Part shown: one piece after another, positions 6,701-37,394 of the stretch
Layout: every line of letters starts with the position of its first letter
Numbering within the stretch: the stretch's first letter is position 1
Assembly: GCA_020629965.1 (NCBI GenBank)
Contig: JAHDCG010000054.1
Coordinates: forward strand, 1-37,394
Source: Saprospiraceae bacterium
GTDB taxonomy: Bacteria > Bacteroidota > Bacteroidia > Chitinophagales > Saprospiraceae
Length of the DNA: 37,394 nucleotides
Reading direction: 5' to 3'
Program-made: the position numbers and the translations under genes
Notes under the pieces: generated by a model
What the model was told of the DNA's origin: nothing
The model's database searches: none
What the model saw: only the letters and a program-made list of their open reading frames with translations

Positions 6701-6741
6701 AATTACTCACAGGGTGACTCGAAGTCACCTTTTGAGTAATT
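6701..6741. repeat. Copy 2 of the nested-palindrome repeat (aattactcacagggtgactcgaagtcaccttttgagtaatt)
   Basis: Outer 9-bp arms are aattactca and tgagtaatt. Inner 6-bp arms are ggtgac and gtcacc around tcgaa. It lies in the Uma2/tas intergenic spacer. Confidence 0.75.
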
Positions 6742-6783: not shown

Positions 6784-7824
6784 ATGCAAAAAAATCAACT
6801 CGGAAATACCGACCTTCAAGTTTCTAAAATCTGCCTCGGCACCATGACCTTCGGCGAGCAAAACACCGAAGCCGAAGGACACGCACAACTCGACTGTGCC
6901 TTAGACCACGGCGTTAATTTCATCGACACGGCAGAAATGTATTCCGTGCCGGGTCGGGCGGAGACGCAGGGCAGCACCGAGCGCATTATCGGCACCTGGC
7001 TCAAAAATCGCAGCGACCGCGACCGCATTATCTTAGCAACAAAAGTGACCGGTCCCTCGGCGGGTCTGCAAAAATATATGCGTCCGCTCGACTTCAAACC
7101 CGCGTCGATACGCACGGCTTTGGACGGCAGTTTCGAGCGATTACAAACGGACTACATCGACGTTTATCAACTGCACTGGCCCGAGCGCGAAGCCAACTTT
7201 TTCGGCAAACGCGGTTACAAACACAATCCCGATAATGAATGGGAAGACAACTTCCTCAGTATCATCGAAACGATGACCGCTTTGATAAGAGAGGGCAAAA
7301 TCAGACACTGGGGTATCAGCAACGAAACCGCTTGGGGCGCGATGCGTTACCTGCACCTCGCCGATAAACACGACCTGCCCCGCCCCGTCAGCATCCAAAA
7401 TCCTTACGGTTTGCTCAATCGCACTTACGAAGTCGGCTTGGCGGAGGTCAGCATCCGCGAGTCATTGAGTCTGCTGACTTATTCTCCGATGGCGTTCGGT
7501 CTGTTGAGCGGAAAATTTCATAAAAAGCAAGACAACGAAAACGCCAGACTCAATAAATTTAAACAAATGTCGCGCTACAACTCGCAGCAGTGTTGGAATG
7601 CCACCGAGAAGTACCTCGCCATCGCCGAAAAACACGGCATGACCCTCGCGCAGATGTCCTTGGCATTCGTCAACGACCGCCCGTTTAACACCTCGACCAT
7701 CATCGGCGCGACGAATTTGGAACAACTGAAAGAAAATATCGGCAGCGCGGAGATTTCTTTGTCGAAAGAAGTGCTGAAGGAAATCGAAGAAGTACAGGAG
7801 CTCATTCCGAATCCTGCGCCGTAG
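6784..7824 (+). CDS. tas: NADP(H)-dependent aldo/keto reductase, Tas-type
   Basis: 346 aa. Strong collinear motif agreement with E. coli Tas: LGTMTFGEQNTEAEGHAQLDCA, RYLHLADKHDLPRPVSIQNPYGLLNRTYEVGLAEVS, and the C-terminal ...IPNPAP. Confidence 0.88.
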   Translation: MQKNQLGNTDLQVSKICLGTMTFGEQNTEAEGHAQLDCALDHGVNFIDTAEMYSVPGRAETQGSTERIIGTWLKNRSDRDRIILATKVTGPSAGLQKYMRPLDFKPASIRTALDGSFERLQTDYIDVYQLHWPEREANFFGKRGYKHNPDNEWEDNFLSIIETMTALIREGKIRHWGISNETAWGAMRYLHLADKHDLPRPVSIQNPYGLLNRTYEVGLAEVSIRESLSLLTYSPMAFGLLSGKFHKKQDNENARLNKFKQMSRYNSQQCWNATEKYLAIAEKHGMTLAQMSLAFVNDRPFNTSTIIGATNLEQLKENIGSAEISLSKEVLKEIEEVQELIPNPAP

Positions 7825-8024
7825 GGTTGGGTGACAGGTGGTGGTTGATAGGTGGTAGAAGGCTACGGGGTTTTGCTTACCTTTGCGGGAGGTTGAGGGG
7901 TTTGGAGGTTGGGGAGTTGGGCGGTTGGGGAAAGCACGGAGTTGTAGAGACGTTGCACTGCCACGTCTTACTATGAAAAAACGAAAGCGGCGAAATAACC
8001 GAAAAAATAAACAAAGAAAGGACT

Positions 8025-8530
8025 CAAAATTTTAAAGATGAAACCACAGACTCAAGCCCGGAGAAAGTTCCCCGCTCCGGGGTTAGGGGTTTAGAAACAC
8101 AGGACAGAGCCGTACTAAAAACCCCCGACCCCGGAGCGGGGAGAACATATTTTCACAACTGAAATTCGTCTTGAATTAAAATTCGATTGCAAAAGGGGAA
8201 TCTCAAATTTTACTGTTTTACAAAAATCAGAGAACCAAAAATTTTAAAGATGAAACCACAGACTCAAGCCCGGAGAAAGTTCCCCCGATTCGGCCTGTCC
8301 CGACTTCAGTCGCGGAGGTTAGGGGTTTAGAAACACAGGACAGAGCCGTACTAAAAACCCCCGACCCCGGAGCGGGGAGAACATATTTTCACAACTGAAA
8401 TTCGTCTTGAATTAAAATTCGATTGCAAAAGGGGAATCTCAAATTTTACTGTTTTACAAAAATGAGAGAACCAAAAATTTTAAAGATTAAATCACAGACT
8501 CAAGCCCGGAGAAAGTTCCCCCGATTCGGG
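8025..8530. repeat. Tandem direct repeat, unit about 212 bp, about 2.3 copies (8025-8236, 8237-8472 with a ~24-bp insertion, and a truncated third copy 8473-8530). Each full unit carries a long GC-rich stem-loop
   Basis: Copy 1 hairpin: ccccgctccgggg (8070-8082) pairs with ccccggagcgggg (8129-8141). An inner stem ggggttt/aaacccc sits in the loop. In copy 2 the left arm is disrupted by an insertion (cccccgattcggcctgtcccgacttcagtcgcggagg). Copy 3 retains only cccccgattcggggg. The array lies between tas and obg. Confidence 0.8.
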
Positions 8531-8571
8531 GGTAAGGAGGCTGAAAACACACAGCAAAAACAAACAAAACC

Positions 8572-9573
8572 TTGGCAGAACAAAACTTTGTAGATTACGT
8601 CAGAATCAATACCCGCTCCGGTAAAGGCGGCGGCGGCTCGACGCACTTGCTGCGCGACCGCAACACCTCGAAGGGCGGCCCTGACGGCGGGGACGGCGGA
8701 CGCGGCGGTCACGTCATCCTGCGCGGCAGCACACACGTGTGGACGCTCCTGCCCTTCCGCTGGCGCAAGCACGTCATTGCGGGCGACGGCGGACACGGCT
8801 CGGGCAGTCACTCGCAGGGCAAAGCTGGCGAAGATGTCATTATGGACGTGCCGCTGGGTACGATTATCAAAGACCCCGAAACGGAGGAAGTTTTGGGTGA
8901 AATTACGGAGGAAGGCGAGATTTTTGTCATTGCCAAAGGCGGTCGCGGCGGTCTCGGAAATGCTAATTTTAAGTCCTCGACTTTACAGACCCCGCGCTTT
9001 GCGCAGCCGGGTGAAGAGGGCGTGGAACACTGGCGCATTTTAGAGCTGAAAGTCTTGGCGGATGTGGGTTTGGTGGGCTTTCCGAATGCCGGAAAGTCAA
9101 CGCTGCTCTCGGTTATGACGGCGGCAAAACCGAAAATCGGGGCTTATCCGTTTACGACGATTATCCCGAATTTGGGCATTGTCAAATACCGCGATACGCG
9201 CTCTTTTGTTATTGCCGACATTCCCGGCATCATCGAAAATGCACACGAAGGCAAAGGTCTCGGGCACCGCTTTTTGCGACACATCGAACGCAACGCGACG
9301 CTGCTTTTTATGATTCCCGCCGACACGGATTCGATTAAAAAGGAATACGAAATTCTACTGCACGAATTGGAAATGTACAACCCCGAATTGCTCGACAAAC
9401 CACGCATTTTGGCCATCACCAAAAGCGACTTGGTGGACGAAGAATTGAAAGAATTAATGCAACCCGACATCCCGAAAGATGTGCCGCACCTGTTCATTTC
9501 CGCCGTAGCGCAGAAAGGGCTGACGGAGTTGAAGGATTTGCTTTGGGAAACGATAAATGACGGTGGACGGTAG
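8572..9573 (+). CDS. obg: Obg-family GTPase (short form lacking a C-terminal OCT domain)
   Basis: Gly-rich Obg N-domain ([19 protein letters not shown]..., [14 protein letters not shown]). It is followed by G1 [10 protein letters not shown]3 DIPG and G4 TKSD motifs. Length 333 aa. Confidence 0.85.
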
Positions 9574-11417: not shown

Positions 11418-11426
11418 GGGGGTTGA

Positions 11427-11475
11427 GTGAGGCTTACTAACCTTTCGGAAGGTTAGTAAGCCTCACAGATTTTTC
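11427..11475 (+). terminator. Rho-independent terminator (18-bp perfect stem, loop tcgg, T-run) directly after the REC-TrxR-like gene; also module A of a BOX-like modular repeat
   Basis: Stem gtgaggcttactaacctt, loop tcgg, stem aaggttagtaagcctcac, followed by agattttt. Confidence 0.65.
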
Positions 11476-11612
11476 GATAGCCCATCGACTAAATTCGATG
11501 CTACGGCACAACCACCTCTTCCTAAAACTTACTCAGTTGGCGCGTGGTTTTACCTCGTGCCGTTCATTACCCCTTGAGAGGCAGGCAAGGCGAGAACCTC
11601 GCGCGAACGTGT
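11427..11612. repeat. Left modular repeat block (sub-elements A 11427-11466, B 11476-11519, C 11534-11568, D 11570-11609) 5' of the AT-rich gene
   Basis: Each sub-element reappears at 85-95% identity on the other side of the gene in the order C, insert, D, A, B (12388-12658). Confidence 0.75.
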
Positions 11613-11629
11613 TAACTTAATTCCATACA

Positions 11630-12367
11630 TTATTTCGCTTTTTGAACATCACGCATAAATTTTCTCCTTTTTTCGAAAAAATCATTTGTTTTCTTTCTGC
11701 CCAAAAACCATTGTTCTTCCGTAAACTCAAAAATTTCAACATCACTTTTTCTTTCGGGAGGAAAATCCTCTTCGTCATATACGGGATTCGATAAATAAAC
11801 TCTGAAACCTATAGTAGTATGAGATTCTCCCCATAACATTCCTTCATCGGGAAAGATATAGTTCCCAATCTTTTCTGCTTTAATTCTTCTCAAACAGTTT
11901 TCTACACGATTAGAATTAATAATTGCTAAATCAATTTGATACTCTTTATCATCTTTCACAGGTAGTACAAAATCACTGTGGACACCTATACTAATTTCGT
12001 AAATAGTTAAATCCAAATGTAAGATTATAAGTTTTTCCTCCAATTTTTCGCTTAGCTTAGTATTTGTATCACCAAATAAAAGTAAATATTTCAAGTTTTC
12101 ATTACAAATTGACTCATCCATCAAAGATTTAATAAAATTATCTTCTGATATAAAAATCTCCTGTCTTGGTGCCGGATGAAAACTAGCATGCACTTTGTTG
12201 AGAAAGAATAGCTCGCACTCTTTTAAAATTTTTAAAACTTCTATAAGGATTTCAATTCTCTTCTTGACGTCATGTATGGTATTTTTTCTTTTGAAACCTT
12301 GACTATAAAAATCCTTATCCTTTAAGTCAATAGTCCATACTCCAAGAGCCTCGTTATATTTTTTCAT
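11630..12367 (-). CDS. Hypothetical protein (245 aa), strongly AT-rich relative to the surrounding DNA; probable horizontally acquired cargo gene
   Basis: Long uninterrupted ORF on the minus strand. By eye its GC is about 30% against 55-60% in the flanks. It is bracketed by homologous repeat modules. No recognisable catalytic motif. Confidence 0.6.
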   Translation of the reverse strand: MKKYNEALGVWTIDLKDKDFYSQGFKRKNTIHDVKKRIEILIEVLKILKECELFFLNKVHASFHPAPRQEIFISEDNFIKSLMDESICNENLKYLLLFGDTNTKLSEKLEEKLIILHLDLTIYEISIGVHSDFVLPVKDDKEYQIDLAIINSNRVENCLRRIKAEKIGNYIFPDEGMLWGESHTTIGFRVYLSNPVYDEEDFPPERKSDVEIFEFTEEQWFLGRKKTNDFFEKRRKFMRDVQKAK

Positions 12368-12387
12368 TCAACTATCTATTTAAGAAT

Positions 12388-12658
12388 CAGTTGGCGCGTG
12401 GTTTTACCTCGTGCCTTTCACTTTCCCGTCTCCGGCGGATTTTGAATACAGATATTAATTCTGCTTTTACCTTTCCGCCGGAGGCGGGCTAATGTATCAC
12501 ACCTTGAGAGGCAGGCGAGGCAAGAGCCTCGCGCGAACGGTTTGAGTTCAAGACTTACTAACCTTCCGAAAGGTTAGTAGGCCTCACGCCGGCCGATACT
12601 TATTCGGTTTCCCGGATAGCCCATCGACTAAAGTCGATGCTACGGCACAGCCACCTCT
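12388..12658. repeat. Right modular repeat block (C 12388-12421, unique hairpin insert 12422-12500, D 12502-12540, A 12552-12587, B 12614-12658)
   Basis: Direct-orientation homologues of the left block. The insert carries a 14-bp imperfect inverted repeat (ccgtctccggcgga ... tccgccggaggcgg) around an AT-rich 38-nt loop. Confidence 0.75.
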
Positions 12659-12670
12659 CCCCTCAAACCC

Positions 12671-14110
12671 CTACCCATCCGAAGCCCGAATCTTAGTACT
12701 CCGCTGTATCCAGCACGGCACAAAGTAAGTGTCGCCGACCTTTAGACTGCGGATGAATATGTCCTCTTTGCTCGGCATGTACTGCGAGTATTGATTGATA
12801 AATTTATTCGCTTCGGCCGCCGAGGAGGGGTCGATGCTTTTGGCTTTGTACCACATATCCAGTGCCGTCCAAACGACGACCTGACTGTTCCAGCCGCGCC
12901 CCGAGCCGCACAACGGGCCGGAGGAAGCGTACATTCTGCCGATGAGCAGATAGGGTTCGCCCCAACCGCCTTTGAGGTCAGCGGCTTCCAGTGCGTAGCG
13001 TCGCGCCTGACTGAAGTTTTTCAGGTGAGCGTAGTAGATTTTGGCGACGAGCATGGTGTATTTAGCTTTCTTTTCGGGGTCGGTTTCGTCGGCAGCTTTG
13101 GTTTTGAAGCAATCCAAGGCCTCGGTGTAATTTGCGTCGCGCAATAGGTCATAGCAAGGATTTTGCGCTACGCGGCAGTCCGTTTGGTATTTTTGGTAAA
13201 TCTCGTTGTACTCCGGCGAGTTAGCTTCCGTGCAGCCGCCGAATTTCAGACGACTCAACACCGTCAGCACATTATCGCAGTCACCGGGACTGGCTTGGTA
13301 CTCCGGGTAGTATTTTTCCGTGAAATAAGCACAGTCGTAAAAGCCTTTAACGCGCTCGAAATATTCCAATCGCTCGGGCAGATAACCTTTGATTTCTTTG
13401 TACAAATCACAGTCCGAGCCTTTGCACTCTTCGGTTTGCTTTTTGAGTGCATCGTTCAGCATTTGCACGTACTTTTTGGCTTCTTCGTCCGTAATTTTTT
13501 CCTCGTAGTGCATATCGACGAGCAGGGCACCGAAGGGATTCATGATGAAGTACGGCATGTCGTCTCCGCCCTTTTCGGCGGCTGTGCGCAGCAGTTCGAA
13601 GGTCTCTTCTTTGCTGCTGCGGTTGGGATATTTATAAAACAAATCGAAGCCTTTGCGTGCGCCGGCGTAGTTTTCCGCGCCCGGGTAGCAGCGTTCCGTC
13701 TCGTCGTACAGCTTAAATATTTCGTCGATGTACTCGTTTATTTTCGTGCTGTCCTGCGTCTGACTGATGAAAACTTCGTAAAAATAAATCCCGTCCAAAT
13801 AGACCGTATTGCGCTGACCGTCGGCGGCGGGGGCTTTTTCGTACACCGTTTTCCAGCGTTTAAAAGCCTCTTCAATTTCATCGTTTTTCAGCATATCTCG
13901 GTAAATGACGTACTGATTTTCGGTATCGTCTTTCTCTTGATACGGCAAATCCTGAAACTTCTTACACGGACTCAAATCGGTCGGCGGCGGGGTCGGCGGG
14001 GTCGGTGTTTGGGTGACCGGTTCGGTGACCGTCTTCGGAGTTTTCGGAGTGCAGGAAAAGGCGAAAATTGCCAAAAGAAGGGCGGCGAAGAGTTTGCTTT
14101 GGAATGTCAT
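12671..14110 (-). CDS. Lipoprotein with helical/TPR-like repeats, function unknown
   Basis: Signal peptide plus lipobox (LLLAIFAFSC). Pro/Thr-rich linker PTPPTPPPTD. Many Cys pairs and a helical-repeat composition. The opposite-strand ORF 13163-14182 has typical antisense V/F/L/R-rich junk composition. Confidence 0.7.
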   Translation of the reverse strand: MTFQSKLFAALLLAIFAFSCTPKTPKTVTEPVTQTPTPPTPPPTDLSPCKKFQDLPYQEKDDTENQYVIYRDMLKNDEIEEAFKRWKTVYEKAPAADGQRNTVYLDGIYFYEVFISQTQDSTKINEYIDEIFKLYDETERCYPGAENYAGARKGFDLFYKYPNRSSKEETFELLRTAAEKGGDDMPYFIMNPFGALLVDMHYEEKITDEEAKKYVQMLNDALKKQTEECKGSDCDLYKEIKGYLPERLEYFERVKGFYDCAYFTEKYYPEYQASPGDCDNVLTVLSRLKFGGCTEANSPEYNEIYQKYQTDCRVAQNPCYDLLRDANYTEALDCFKTKAADETDPEKKAKYTMLVAKIYYAHLKNFSQARRYALEAADLKGGWGEPYLLIGRMYASSGPLCGSGRGWNSQVVVWTALDMWYKAKSIDPSSAAEANKFINQYSQYMPSKEDIFIRSLKVGDTYFVPCWIQRSTKIRASDG

Positions 14111-16162: not shown

Positions 16163-16337
16163 AAGCGAGATGTTAGATTTTAGATTTTAGACGTTAGACT
16201 GCTTACGCCACCTAAAATACCACCGACACGATTGCCTCAAGGAGAAAAAACCAAAAACCAAAAATCAACTACACGGTCAAGAAAAAATCGACCGGCAACC
16301 ATCAACCATCAACTACCAACCATCAACTAACAAAATT

Positions 16338-30533: not shown

Positions 30534-31478
30534 TTACCGTTTTTTCCCCAACCACCAAGCCAATGCCACCACCCCGACGGCGAGCGCACCGAGTACGGTT
30601 TTCTGCTCCGTGTTGAGGGTTTCGCGCATTTCGGGCGGCAGATGTTTTTGGCGGTCGCCGTGTACGAGATAGCCGACCAAAGCAATCGGAATGAAGATAA
30701 AACCGGCGAGCGAACCGAGCGCAACCCGACCAATCATCAGGGCGGTGCGGGCGACGGTCATTTCTTCGTCCTGCGGTTTTAAGGCGGACACGACGGCAAC
30801 CGAGTCACCGGGGGCGGGCTTGGGTTTGGGCTTAGCGTCCATTGGTTTGTCACCGGCGATGGCGATGCCGAAGTGCGTTTTGCCGGGCGTAAACCAGTGC
30901 GGGTCCACATAGACGTAGCGGATATTTTCAAAGCCTGCTTCTTCGTAAAATTTGAAATAATCTTTTTCGGGCGGAAAGAGCATCCAGGTCGTCGCGAAAA
31001 AGCGACCGACGGGATTTCCGGGTTCTATCGGACCGATGAGCAAAGCCGTGCCGCCGGGTTTGACGACGCGAAAAGCCTCATCGACGCCCCGCTGCGGGTC
31101 GGGCCAATACTCGATACTGCCGGCACTCACGTAGCGGTCGAAAGTATCGTCCGGGTAAGGAATATTTTCGGCGTCGCCGATGCGAAAAGTACAATCCTGC
31201 AGGTCGGGTTTCGCCTTTGCCTTCGCCATTTGTTGGTGGCTTTGATCCACGCAGAACACATTGTGCGCGGGCACGCGCTTGACAATGCCCTGCGTCGTAA
31301 AACCGGTGCCGGAGCCTACGTCGATAACTTTCAGATTCGGGTCGTCGAGTTTGCCGATGTCCAGTGATTCTTCGCGCATTCTGACCGTCCAAAAGAGGGG
31401 GTTGACGAGGTTGTCGTAGAAGTTGGAGAGGAAATAGTAGAACCAGTAGGCTTCTTTTTTATGTTGTACTAATTGCAT
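30534..31478 (-). CDS. SAM-dependent methyltransferase of the MPBQ/MSBQ methyltransferase (VTE3-like) family with C-terminal membrane anchor
   Basis: YYFLSNFYDNLVNPLFWT, VIDVGSGTGFTTQGIVK, DQSHQQMAKAKAK, GDAENIPYPDDTFDRYVSAGSIEYWPDPQRG, GGTALLIGP, and RFFATTWMLFP, collinear with plant VTE3/APG1. Two C-terminal TM helices. Confidence 0.8.
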   Translation of the reverse strand: MQLVQHKKEAYWFYYFLSNFYDNLVNPLFWTVRMREESLDIGKLDDPNLKVIDVGSGTGFTTQGIVKRVPAHNVFCVDQSHQQMAKAKAKPDLQDCTFRIGDAENIPYPDDTFDRYVSAGSIEYWPDPQRGVDEAFRVVKPGGTALLIGPIEPGNPVGRFFATTWMLFPPEKDYFKFYEEAGFENIRYVYVDPHWFTPGKTHFGIAIAGDKPMDAKPKPKPAPGDSVAVVSALKPQDEEMTVARTALMIGRVALGSLAGFIFIPIALVGYLVHGDRQKHLPPEMRETLNTEQKTVLGALAVGVVALAWWLGKKR

Positions 31479-31528
31479 TTTTTTTGAGACTTTAGACGTT
31501 AGATTTTAGATGTTAGAATTCCGAACGG

Positions 31529-31820: not shown

Positions 31821-31881
31821 GGTTGCCGTTTTTTACTCACAGGGTGACTCAAAGTCACCTTTTGAGTAAAAAACGGCAACC
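31821..31881. repeat. Copy 3 of the nested-palindrome repeat, here a 61-bp near-perfect palindrome between the GGR stop and the ferredoxin start (inside the operon)
   Basis: ggttgccgttttttactca-c-agggtgact-caaa-gtcacc-ttt-tgagtaaaaaacggcaacc. Outer stem 19 bp, inner stem 7 bp. No flanking U-tract on either strand. Confidence 0.8.
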
Positions 31882-36416: not shown

Positions 36417-36884
36417 TTACAATCTATCCAAAAACAAAATTCCGTTCAGATGGTCGATTTCATGCTGAAAAATGACCGCCGTAAAGTCCTCAATCATCTC
36501 CGTGTGGTGCGAGCCGTCGAGTTTATCGTATTCAAGCAAAACGGCATAAGCCCGCGTTTTCGTCGTCGCCCGATAATCGGGAACAGACAGGCAACCTTCG
36601 GGACAATCCTGCTTTAAATCCGTGTATTTAACAATTTTCGGATTGAGATACACCTCGAACGGAAAATCAGGCTTATCAAATCGCTGCACCCAAATAATGT
36701 TGCGCAAAATACCGACCTGCGGCGCGGCAATACCGACTCCGAGCGAAATCGAGTCGCGCACCGTGCTGTACAATCTGCCCACAAATCGCTGCAAAATCGG
36801 GTCATTCGGGTCGGGCACGACATCGCTGCATTGCTTGCGCAGCAACAAGGAGTCAGCCCGATTATTGATTTTGAAAACCCGCAT
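36417..36884 (-). CDS. def: Peptide deformylase. Start placed at the internal Met; an in-frame upstream extension to 37058 would add a 58-aa lipoprotein-like leader
   Basis: Motif 1 GVGIAAPQVG, motif 2 EGCLSVP, motif 3 HEIDHLNG. From the internal Met the N-terminus MRVFKINNRADSLLLRKQ aligns with canonical PDF N-termini (M-x-hhxhhxxxDxxLRK). Confidence 0.85.
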   Translation of the reverse strand: MRVFKINNRADSLLLRKQCSDVVPDPNDPILQRFVGRLYSTVRDSISLGVGIAAPQVGILRNIIWVQRFDKPDFPFEVYLNPKIVKYTDLKQDCPEGCLSVPDYRATTKTRAYAVLLEYDKLDGSHHTEMIEDFTAVIFQHEIDHLNGILFLDRL

Positions 36885-37061
36885 CGGCTTATCCGCAGCG
36901 GCGGCATTTATCAACTCTGCCTGCGCTGCCGTAAAAGAAACAGAACCGCCGGTAGTCCCCGCTGCCGTCACGGATTTCTTCGCTTTACAACTCATTAAAA
37001 GCAAAAGCAGCAGCAAAAATGTAAAACCCCGCAAAAGTCTAAAATCAACGTACATCATAAA

Positions 37062-37394
37062 AAATCATATAAAATCAGCGTCAGAAGTTACAGCCACAAA
37101 ATTTTACGAAGTAAAATCAATCATAAAACATCATAACTCTCCTAAAAATCAGAGTTAAAAACAAAGTCACACGAGCAATCAGCGCAAACCATAAAAAAAT
37201 CATATAAAATCAGCGTCAGAAGTTACAGCCACAAAATTTTACGAAGTAAAATCAATCATAAAACATCATAACTCTCCTAAAAATCAGGGTCAAAAACAAA
37301 GTCACACAAGCAATCAGCGTAAACCATAAAAAATCATACAAAATCAGCGTCAGAAGTTACAGCCACAAAATTTTACGAAGTAAAATCAATCATA
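37062..37394. repeat. Tandem direct repeat, unit about 134-135 bp, at least 2.5 copies, running off the window end; abuts the def upstream region
   Basis: The landmark 'cagcgtcagaagttacagcc' recurs at 37076, 37211 and 37345. Copies differ by only a few substitutions. Each unit has a small hairpin attttac-gaag-taaaat. Confidence 0.85.

Follow-up and report, generated by a model that had tools for sequence, protein, structure and literature searches.

The spacer between tas and obg in an uncultured Saprospiraceae bacterium carries a tandem array of about 2.3-2.4 copies of a 212-nt unit built around a long hairpin, and this array could be found in one species only. It was analyzed in a window, meaning the whole stretch of 37,394 nucleotides under study, which is a complete MAG contig (assembly GCA_020629965.1, contig JAHDCG010000054.1, forward strand). 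The array is most probably near-neutral repeat DNA and not a dedicated RNA gene, and we assign a probability of about 0.6 to the following reading: a long quasi-palindrome has been duplicated in tandem, in this species only and without coding function, within a spacer in which repeats have been building up, and the product is carried passively in the leader of obg.

The array lies between two genes that are encoded on the same strand:

6784 to 7824, + strand: aldo/keto reductase gene, named tas in the first-pass annotation (Pfam PF00248, E = 6e-67).
8572 to 9573, + strand: obg, encoding the GTPase Obg, with a TTG start codon (Pfam GTP1_OBG and MMR_HSR1).

The spacer, from the tas stop at 7824 to the obg start at 8572, has a length of 747 nt. 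The N-terminus of Obg, MAEQNFVDY, aligns with the Obg proteins of relatives, and the nearest Obg sequences all belong to MAGs of Saprospiraceae or Lewinellaceae. The start codon of obg is TTG in this species (8572) and GTG in the related loci L019, L108, L110, and L111. A neighbouring metallopeptidase carries a T9SS sorting domain.

The presence of a tandem repeat upstream of obg, at the coordinates and in the ∼2.3 copies given by the first-pass annotation, was confirmed with TRF and with a repeat search, far above chance. TRF identified the region 8081-8529 with a period of 236, 1.9 copies, 98% matches and a score of 877, and a direct repeat of 213 nt with 99% identity was observed between 8081-8293 and 8317-8529. 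A 64-nt block occurs three times, at 8010-8073, 8222-8285, and 8458-8521, with spacings of 212 and 236 nt, respectively. A 29-mer from this block, common to all three copies, was found exactly three times in the window and 0 times in shuffled sequences. The following parts could be distinguished:

8025 to 8236, + strand: copy 1 of the repeat, 212 nt (TRF, repeat search, nhmmer).
8237 to 8472, + strand: copy 2 of the repeat, 236 nt (TRF, repeat search, nhmmer).
8473 to about 8551, + strand: stump of copy 3 (repeat families D2 and D3; nhmmer E = 2e-9).
8294 to 8317, + strand: 24-nt segment present in copy 2 only, unique in the window and with its own 7-bp mini hairpin.

The copies follow each other head to tail, as expected of a tandem-repeat (minisatellite/VNTR) locus. 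In the stump, the first 57 nt are ∼96% identical to copy 2 and the next 26 nt 73%, after which no similarity is left. The 24-nt segment of copy 2 is also present at the same position in a second MAG of the species (GCA_020628695.1), and apart from this position no other copy that could be its source was found in the window or in the fetched loci. It falls exactly on the copy junction in the 236-nt register of TRF, and could therefore be filler DNA of the duplication junction instead of a later insertion.

All three copies contain predicted structures:

8068 to 8143, + strand: hairpin of copy 1, consisting of 17 bp, a 1x1 internal loop, 7 bp and a 26-nt apical loop.
8280 to 8381, + strand: three-way junction of copy 2, consisting of the outer stem, the inserted mini hairpin and the inner stem.
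8518 to 8532, + strand: mini hairpin of copy 3, 6 bp, CCCCCGATTCGGGGG (RNA fold).

The arms of the copy 1 hairpin (8069-8092 and 8119-8142) are 24 nt each, are 92% complementary and lie 26 nt apart. The RNA fold of copy 1 has an energy of -50.7 kcal/mol compared to a shuffle mean of -25.4 (z = -8.3), and 0 of 200 shuffles were as stable. The GC-rich double stem-loop described in the first-pass annotation is thus indeed a strong hairpin, but it forms one long interrupted hairpin rather than two stem-loops, and its outer stem comprises 17 bp instead of 13 bp. The left arm of copy 2, which had been described as lost, is a variant arm, CCCCCGATTCGG, which still pairs with CCGGAGCGGGG, and the fold of copy 2 reaches -40.0 kcal/mol with a z of only -1.9. 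The view of the locus as a decaying array holds for copy 3, which is a diverged stump, but not for copy 2, which is no broken copy but a structured variant. The copy 1 hairpin folds equally well on the opposite strand, as a DNA palindrome would, whereas a strand-specific RNA would not be expected to. Moreover, each hairpin arm is itself a small palindrome, CCCCG-NNN-CGGGG, with four occurrences versus 0.07 expected. The stability of the hairpin is far above what neutral sequence would require (z = -8.3) and, together with the foldable copy 2, could hint at structural selection, which would argue against neutrality. However, a palindrome born by templated repair would look the same.

Bacteroidetes sigma-A promoters contain a TAnnTTTG -7 box at positions -12 to -5 (PMC9723704). 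Such a box, and two further elements upstream of the array, are located in the spacer:

7878 to 7885, + strand: TACCTTTG, -7 box of the Bacteroidetes sigma-A type and presumed promoter of obg (TAnnTTTG match).
7887 to 7931, + strand: G-rich 16-nt repeats GGAGGTTGAGGGGTTT, GGAGGTTGGGGAGTTG, and GGCGGTTGGGG (TRF period 16, 2.8 copies; family D4).
7944 to 7968, + strand: REP-like element, GTAG plus the palindrome AGACGT-N9-ACGTCT (repeat search).

TACCTTTG is the sole TAnnTTTG match on the + strand of 7825-8571, even when one mismatch is allowed, and transcription is predicted to start near 7890. An internal Bacteroidetes promoter was rejected, as 7886-8571 contains no TAnnTTTG with at most one mismatch on the + strand. 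No change in the extended box TTACCTTTGCG is seen among the second MAG, the Logan strain variants and L103, L019, and L110, and the box follows tas in L019, L110, L103, and the second MAG. In many Saprospiraceae, TAyCTTTG is present 25-80 nt upstream of obg. The distance between the -7 box and the obg start codon is ∼41 nt in L019 and L110 versus 686 nt here, and relative to relatives this species has ∼640 extra nt between box and obg. The extra DNA consists, in order, of the G-rich 16-nt repeats, the REP-like palindrome, an A-rich stretch and the array. The array (8025-8551) is therefore flanked by the conserved -7 box on one side and by the start codon of obg on the other, which is the position of a leader. 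As the box is conserved but lies 686 nt from the start codon, the array is most likely contained within an expanded obg 5′ UTR. It would probably be transcribed within a 5′ UTR of ∼680 nt, with promoter use deduced from one conserved motif. The earlier proposal that the repeat might belong to the obg leader thus gains indirect support from this sole, conserved -7 box upstream of the array.

The G-rich repeats directly follow the conserved -7 box, contain at least four G-runs and are absent from relatives. They weakly resemble the inner left arm of the array hairpin, a score that was reached by 1 of 500 shuffles. The REP-like element (GTAGAGACGTTGCAyTGCsACGTCT) has a second copy, in reverse complement, at 1861-1885; both copies are present in the second MAG, and none was found in the >80 related loci.

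The order of tas followed by obg is also found in relatives, but there the array is absent. L019 and L110 (Obg 84% identical in both) have spacers of 135 and 119 nt, respectively, and L111 (Obg 82% identical) has a spacer of 55 nt. In L108, the closest relative outside the species (Obg 95% identical), no relationship is seen over the 320 nt that precede obg. Homologs of the spacer, the unit and the hairpin were searched with blastn and nhmmer in ∼955 kb of Saprospiraceae loci from >80 genomes, and only the same-species locus was identified. A 21-mer common to the three copies gave 0 matches in 596 Gb of species-representative genomes, a set that includes neither MAG of this species, and 0 matches in JGI metagenomes. 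The right hairpin arm had 0 matches in viral contigs, and no match to the array was found in phages and plasmids (blastn, distant setting). The two-arm hairpin pattern had one metagenome match (L109), on a high-GC marine contig, which was dismissed as chance because only the 13-nt arms match. The first-pass annotation had proposed a search in related genomes, and had listed, among the observations speaking against its reading as an sRNA or regulatory element, that close relatives lack the repeat at this locus or have an unrelated one; this is what was found for every relative outside the species.

Upstream of its obg, L108 has its own 50-nt inverted repeat (1-50 versus 100-147, 78%), and no tas is present within the 320 nt. 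Turnover of structured non-coding DNA thus seems to have a hotspot upstream of obg in this clade.

Within the species, the second MAG has an identical array architecture, with the same copy number and copy lengths. Its sequence is identical to that of the window over 7972-8413 (0 differences), and the six substitutions between 8414 and 8538 all lie outside the hairpins. The 50 nt after the tas stop (7828-7877, compared with 6160-6210 of L099) are highly divergent between the two strains, with indels and ∼10 substitutions, and in the next 530 nt the strains differ at only four positions. This suggests that the divergent 50 nt represent a recombination patch.

The array was compared with mycobacterial MIRU-type repeats. 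Like MIRU-type minisatellites/VNTRs, it consists of head-to-tail units of tens to hundreds of nt between same-strand genes, is probably co-transcribed, is restricted to a narrow lineage and has diverged end copies. It differs from MIRU-type loci in its longer unit (212-236 nt), which carries a 24-bp hairpin, and in that this genome is not known to contain a family of such loci. Unlike a VNTR, it shows no copy-number polymorphism between the two available strains, i.e., the window and GCA_020628695.1, although two short-read MAGs provide a weak test. With the same restriction, the equal copy number counts against a fast-evolving minisatellite. It is concluded that the array is a newly described, ordinary instance of a lineage-specific intergenic tandem repeat.

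In the preferred reading, the array would have arisen by slipped-strand mispairing or unequal recombination around the long quasi-palindrome. This would have produced two full units and a diverged stump, resembling a minisatellite, within the ∼640 nt that were gained between the box and obg, and the 24-mer specific to copy 2 may mark one of the duplication junctions. The array would be co-transcribed in the ∼680-nt obg 5′ UTR, and any effect would be exerted in cis on the obg mRNA, with the 24-bp stem as a possible target of a double-strand-specific RNase. Alternatively, the hairpin might impede the ribosome or the polymerase.

It is rather unlikely that the array goes back to a dispersed (semi-)mobile repeat of the MITE-, ERIC-, Correia- or BIME-like type, represented by the unit or its hairpin core, which landed between the promoter and obg and was then tandemly duplicated. 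The ∼640 extra nt are an insertion relative to relatives, and the REP-like GTAG palindrome is found 100 nt upstream within the same spacer, with its second copy 6 kb off. At least two other dispersed palindromic families are present on the contig, and the hairpin arms, each of them a small palindrome, loosely recall paired REPs. However, no other copy of the unit or the hairpin was identified in the 37-kb window or in the ∼955 kb from >80 related genomes, and no exact genome, metagenome or viral match was found, apart from the arm-only marine match attributed to chance. In the repeat search, the unit ends showed neither terminal inverted repeats nor a target-site duplication, both of which would be expected at the ends of an element. 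A flanking similarity of 18 nt between 7998-8015 and 8551-8568 (83%) consists of A-rich low-complexity sequence.

With ERIC and Correia (NEMIS) elements the array shares a long imperfect GC-rich palindrome in a presumably transcribed spacer upstream of a gene, and the stem is long enough, in principle, for processing by a double-strand-specific RNase. However, ERIC and Correia elements have defined termini and occur as tens to hundreds of dispersed copies, whereas the array has no second locus in the searched data, has no terminal inverted repeats and shows no sequence similarity to them. Like REP and BIME elements, it contains short GC-rich palindromes as inverted pairs in a spacer, but its hairpin arms lack the GTAG hallmark and it is not demonstrably dispersed, and it was not classified as REP/BIME. 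A scan of the 18 larger ORFs of the window identified no RAYT transposase gene.

The following short reading frames were considered:

8038 to 8094: short uORF, MKPQTQARRKFPAPGLGV followed by a stop, 18 aa (26 aa in copy 2), ending in the left arm of the hairpin.
8187 to 8330: candidate ORF of 47 aa.
8423 to 8593: candidate ORF of 56 aa.

For none of the 47-, 56-, 18- and 26-aa ORFs does a gene record exist anywhere. All six substitutions (6/6) inside the array ORFs, between copies or strains, are nonsynonymous, and in the obg-proximal copy the ATG of the uORF is missing, with ATT in its place here and TTT in the second strain. On these grounds, the idea that the array encodes small proteins is not supported. 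The possibility that the unit is a degenerate duplicate of the 5′ coding region of obg was also rejected, with an alignment score of 17 compared to a shuffle mean of 16.8. By eye, 'cagaacaaaactttgtagat' resembles 'gagaaccaaaaattttaaagat', an apparent likeness of the unit to the first codons of obg; the local alignment is not significant.

We regard it as unlikely that the array is a functional cis-regulatory leader, in which translation of the uORF or cleavage of the stem by an RNase would tune the production or translation of full-length obg mRNA. Its position between the conserved -7 box and obg fits such a role, as do the very stable stem, the A-rich, unstructured context of the uORF start and the ability of GCCCGGAG (8056-8063) to pair alternatively with CTCCGGGG in the left arm. 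The 24-nt insert, in addition, preserves the reading frame and the stop codon, but one indel in three would keep the frame by accident. Furthermore, the copy nearest to obg has no ATG, the ORFs give no synonymous-versus-nonsynonymous signal, conservation outside the species is lacking, and the obg leaders of relatives are only ∼40 nt long. On the + strand, no U-tract or terminator-like site follows the hairpin: the stem is followed by GAGAACAUAUUUUCAC, which the scan did not call as an intrinsic terminator or attenuator. The resemblance to leader-peptide attenuators and structured 5′ UTRs lies in the position between promoter and start codon, in a short ORF that runs into a strong hairpin and in the possible alternative pairing, and the array departs from them in having neither a U-tract terminator nor conservation, nor a uORF start in the copy nearest to obg. 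More far-reaching proposals, namely that the ∼680-nt leader, recently gained, with its duplicated 24-bp hairpins and the uORF ending inside them constitutes a new lineage-specific post-transcriptional control of obg, which would act by RNase cleavage or by unfolding coupled to translation, or that the unit is the first member of an undescribed Saprospiraceae family of mobile structured repeats, are improbable.

The first-pass annotation had suggested that the units might be duplicated sRNAs or other duplicated structured RNAs; in the former case, every unit would be a small RNA gene transcribed on its own. A strong hairpin followed by an AT-rich tail, in a unit that has been duplicated, is in line with this, but as an explanation the sRNA gene is very improbable, and a conserved structured RNA is not supported either. 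The Rfam scan that had been proposed along with it gave 0 matches at gathering score for the whole window. When the region 7800-8620 was scanned at E ≤ 10, the best match was mir-955, with 22 bits versus a threshold of 50, and all matches at this level are noise caused by the hairpin. No tRNA or tmRNA relics were found. Within the unit, neither a sigma-70-like promoter (promoter scan) nor a sigma-A -7 box with at most one mismatch could be identified. The + strand of the unit contains no terminator-like site and hence no intrinsic terminator; only weak sites with a 5-bp sub-hairpin are present on the - strand. In addition, homologs are absent from all relatives, and the equally good fold on both strands is that of a DNA palindrome.

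It is hardly credible that the array is an assembly artefact, i.e., a collapsed or chimeric repeat: the second MAG does break inside the array and the window contig itself terminates in another repeat, but the two independent assemblies agree in order and lengths, and the copies are told apart by the 24-nt indel and by substitutions. In GCA_020628695.1 the locus is split over two contigs, which overlap by 13 nt, with the break in the right arm of the hairpin of copy 1. In many SRA runs, the short-read unitigs with coding sequences for the identical Tas or Obg proteins also stop where the repeat begins or ends, as they would at a real repeat. The same architecture in the second MAG and the breaks of the unitigs indicate that the array is real and common to the species.

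Further repeats were observed on the same contig. A second array (37056-37394) consists of 2.5 copies of 135 bp with 96% identity and runs into the contig end; it lies directly upstream of an ORF for a peptide deformylase on the minus strand (36417-37058), has no sequence relationship to the array at obg and is absent from the loci of relatives. A dispersed palindromic element, TTACTCAC.GGGTGACT...AGTCAC.TTTTGAGTAA, is found in intergenic positions at 1742-1792, 6703-6739, and 31821-31881, and its copy at 1742-1792 has a longer loop, which echoes the hairpin-with-insert pattern of the obg array. A non-coding block of ∼210 nt (11418-11629) contains a perfect hairpin of 15 bp (11430-11466). The block is repeated at 12368-12672 with its segments, which are 83-94% identical, in circularly permuted order, and the two occurrences flank an orphan ORF of 245 aa (11630-12367, minus strand, no Pfam match). 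Heptamer repeats of the TTAGAyr type (GAGATGTTAGATTTTAGATTTTAGACGTTAGA) are present in two intergenic spacers, at 16167-16198 and 31472-31517. Given the 135-bp array, the REP-like element, the palindromic families and the duplicated block, the expansion of repeats in spacers seems to be a general habit of this genome.

As a species-restricted tandem duplication, the array accounts for the breaks of short-read assemblies between tas and obg in this organism. If this reading is true, its significance would be small unless the hairpins alter the expression of obg or the unit is mobile. The array is a potential strain-typing marker for this uncultured Saprospiraceae lineage, and it would provide a natural example of a housekeeping gene whose leader has grown ∼15-fold (from ∼40 to ∼680 nt) within a genus while its promoter box was not displaced.
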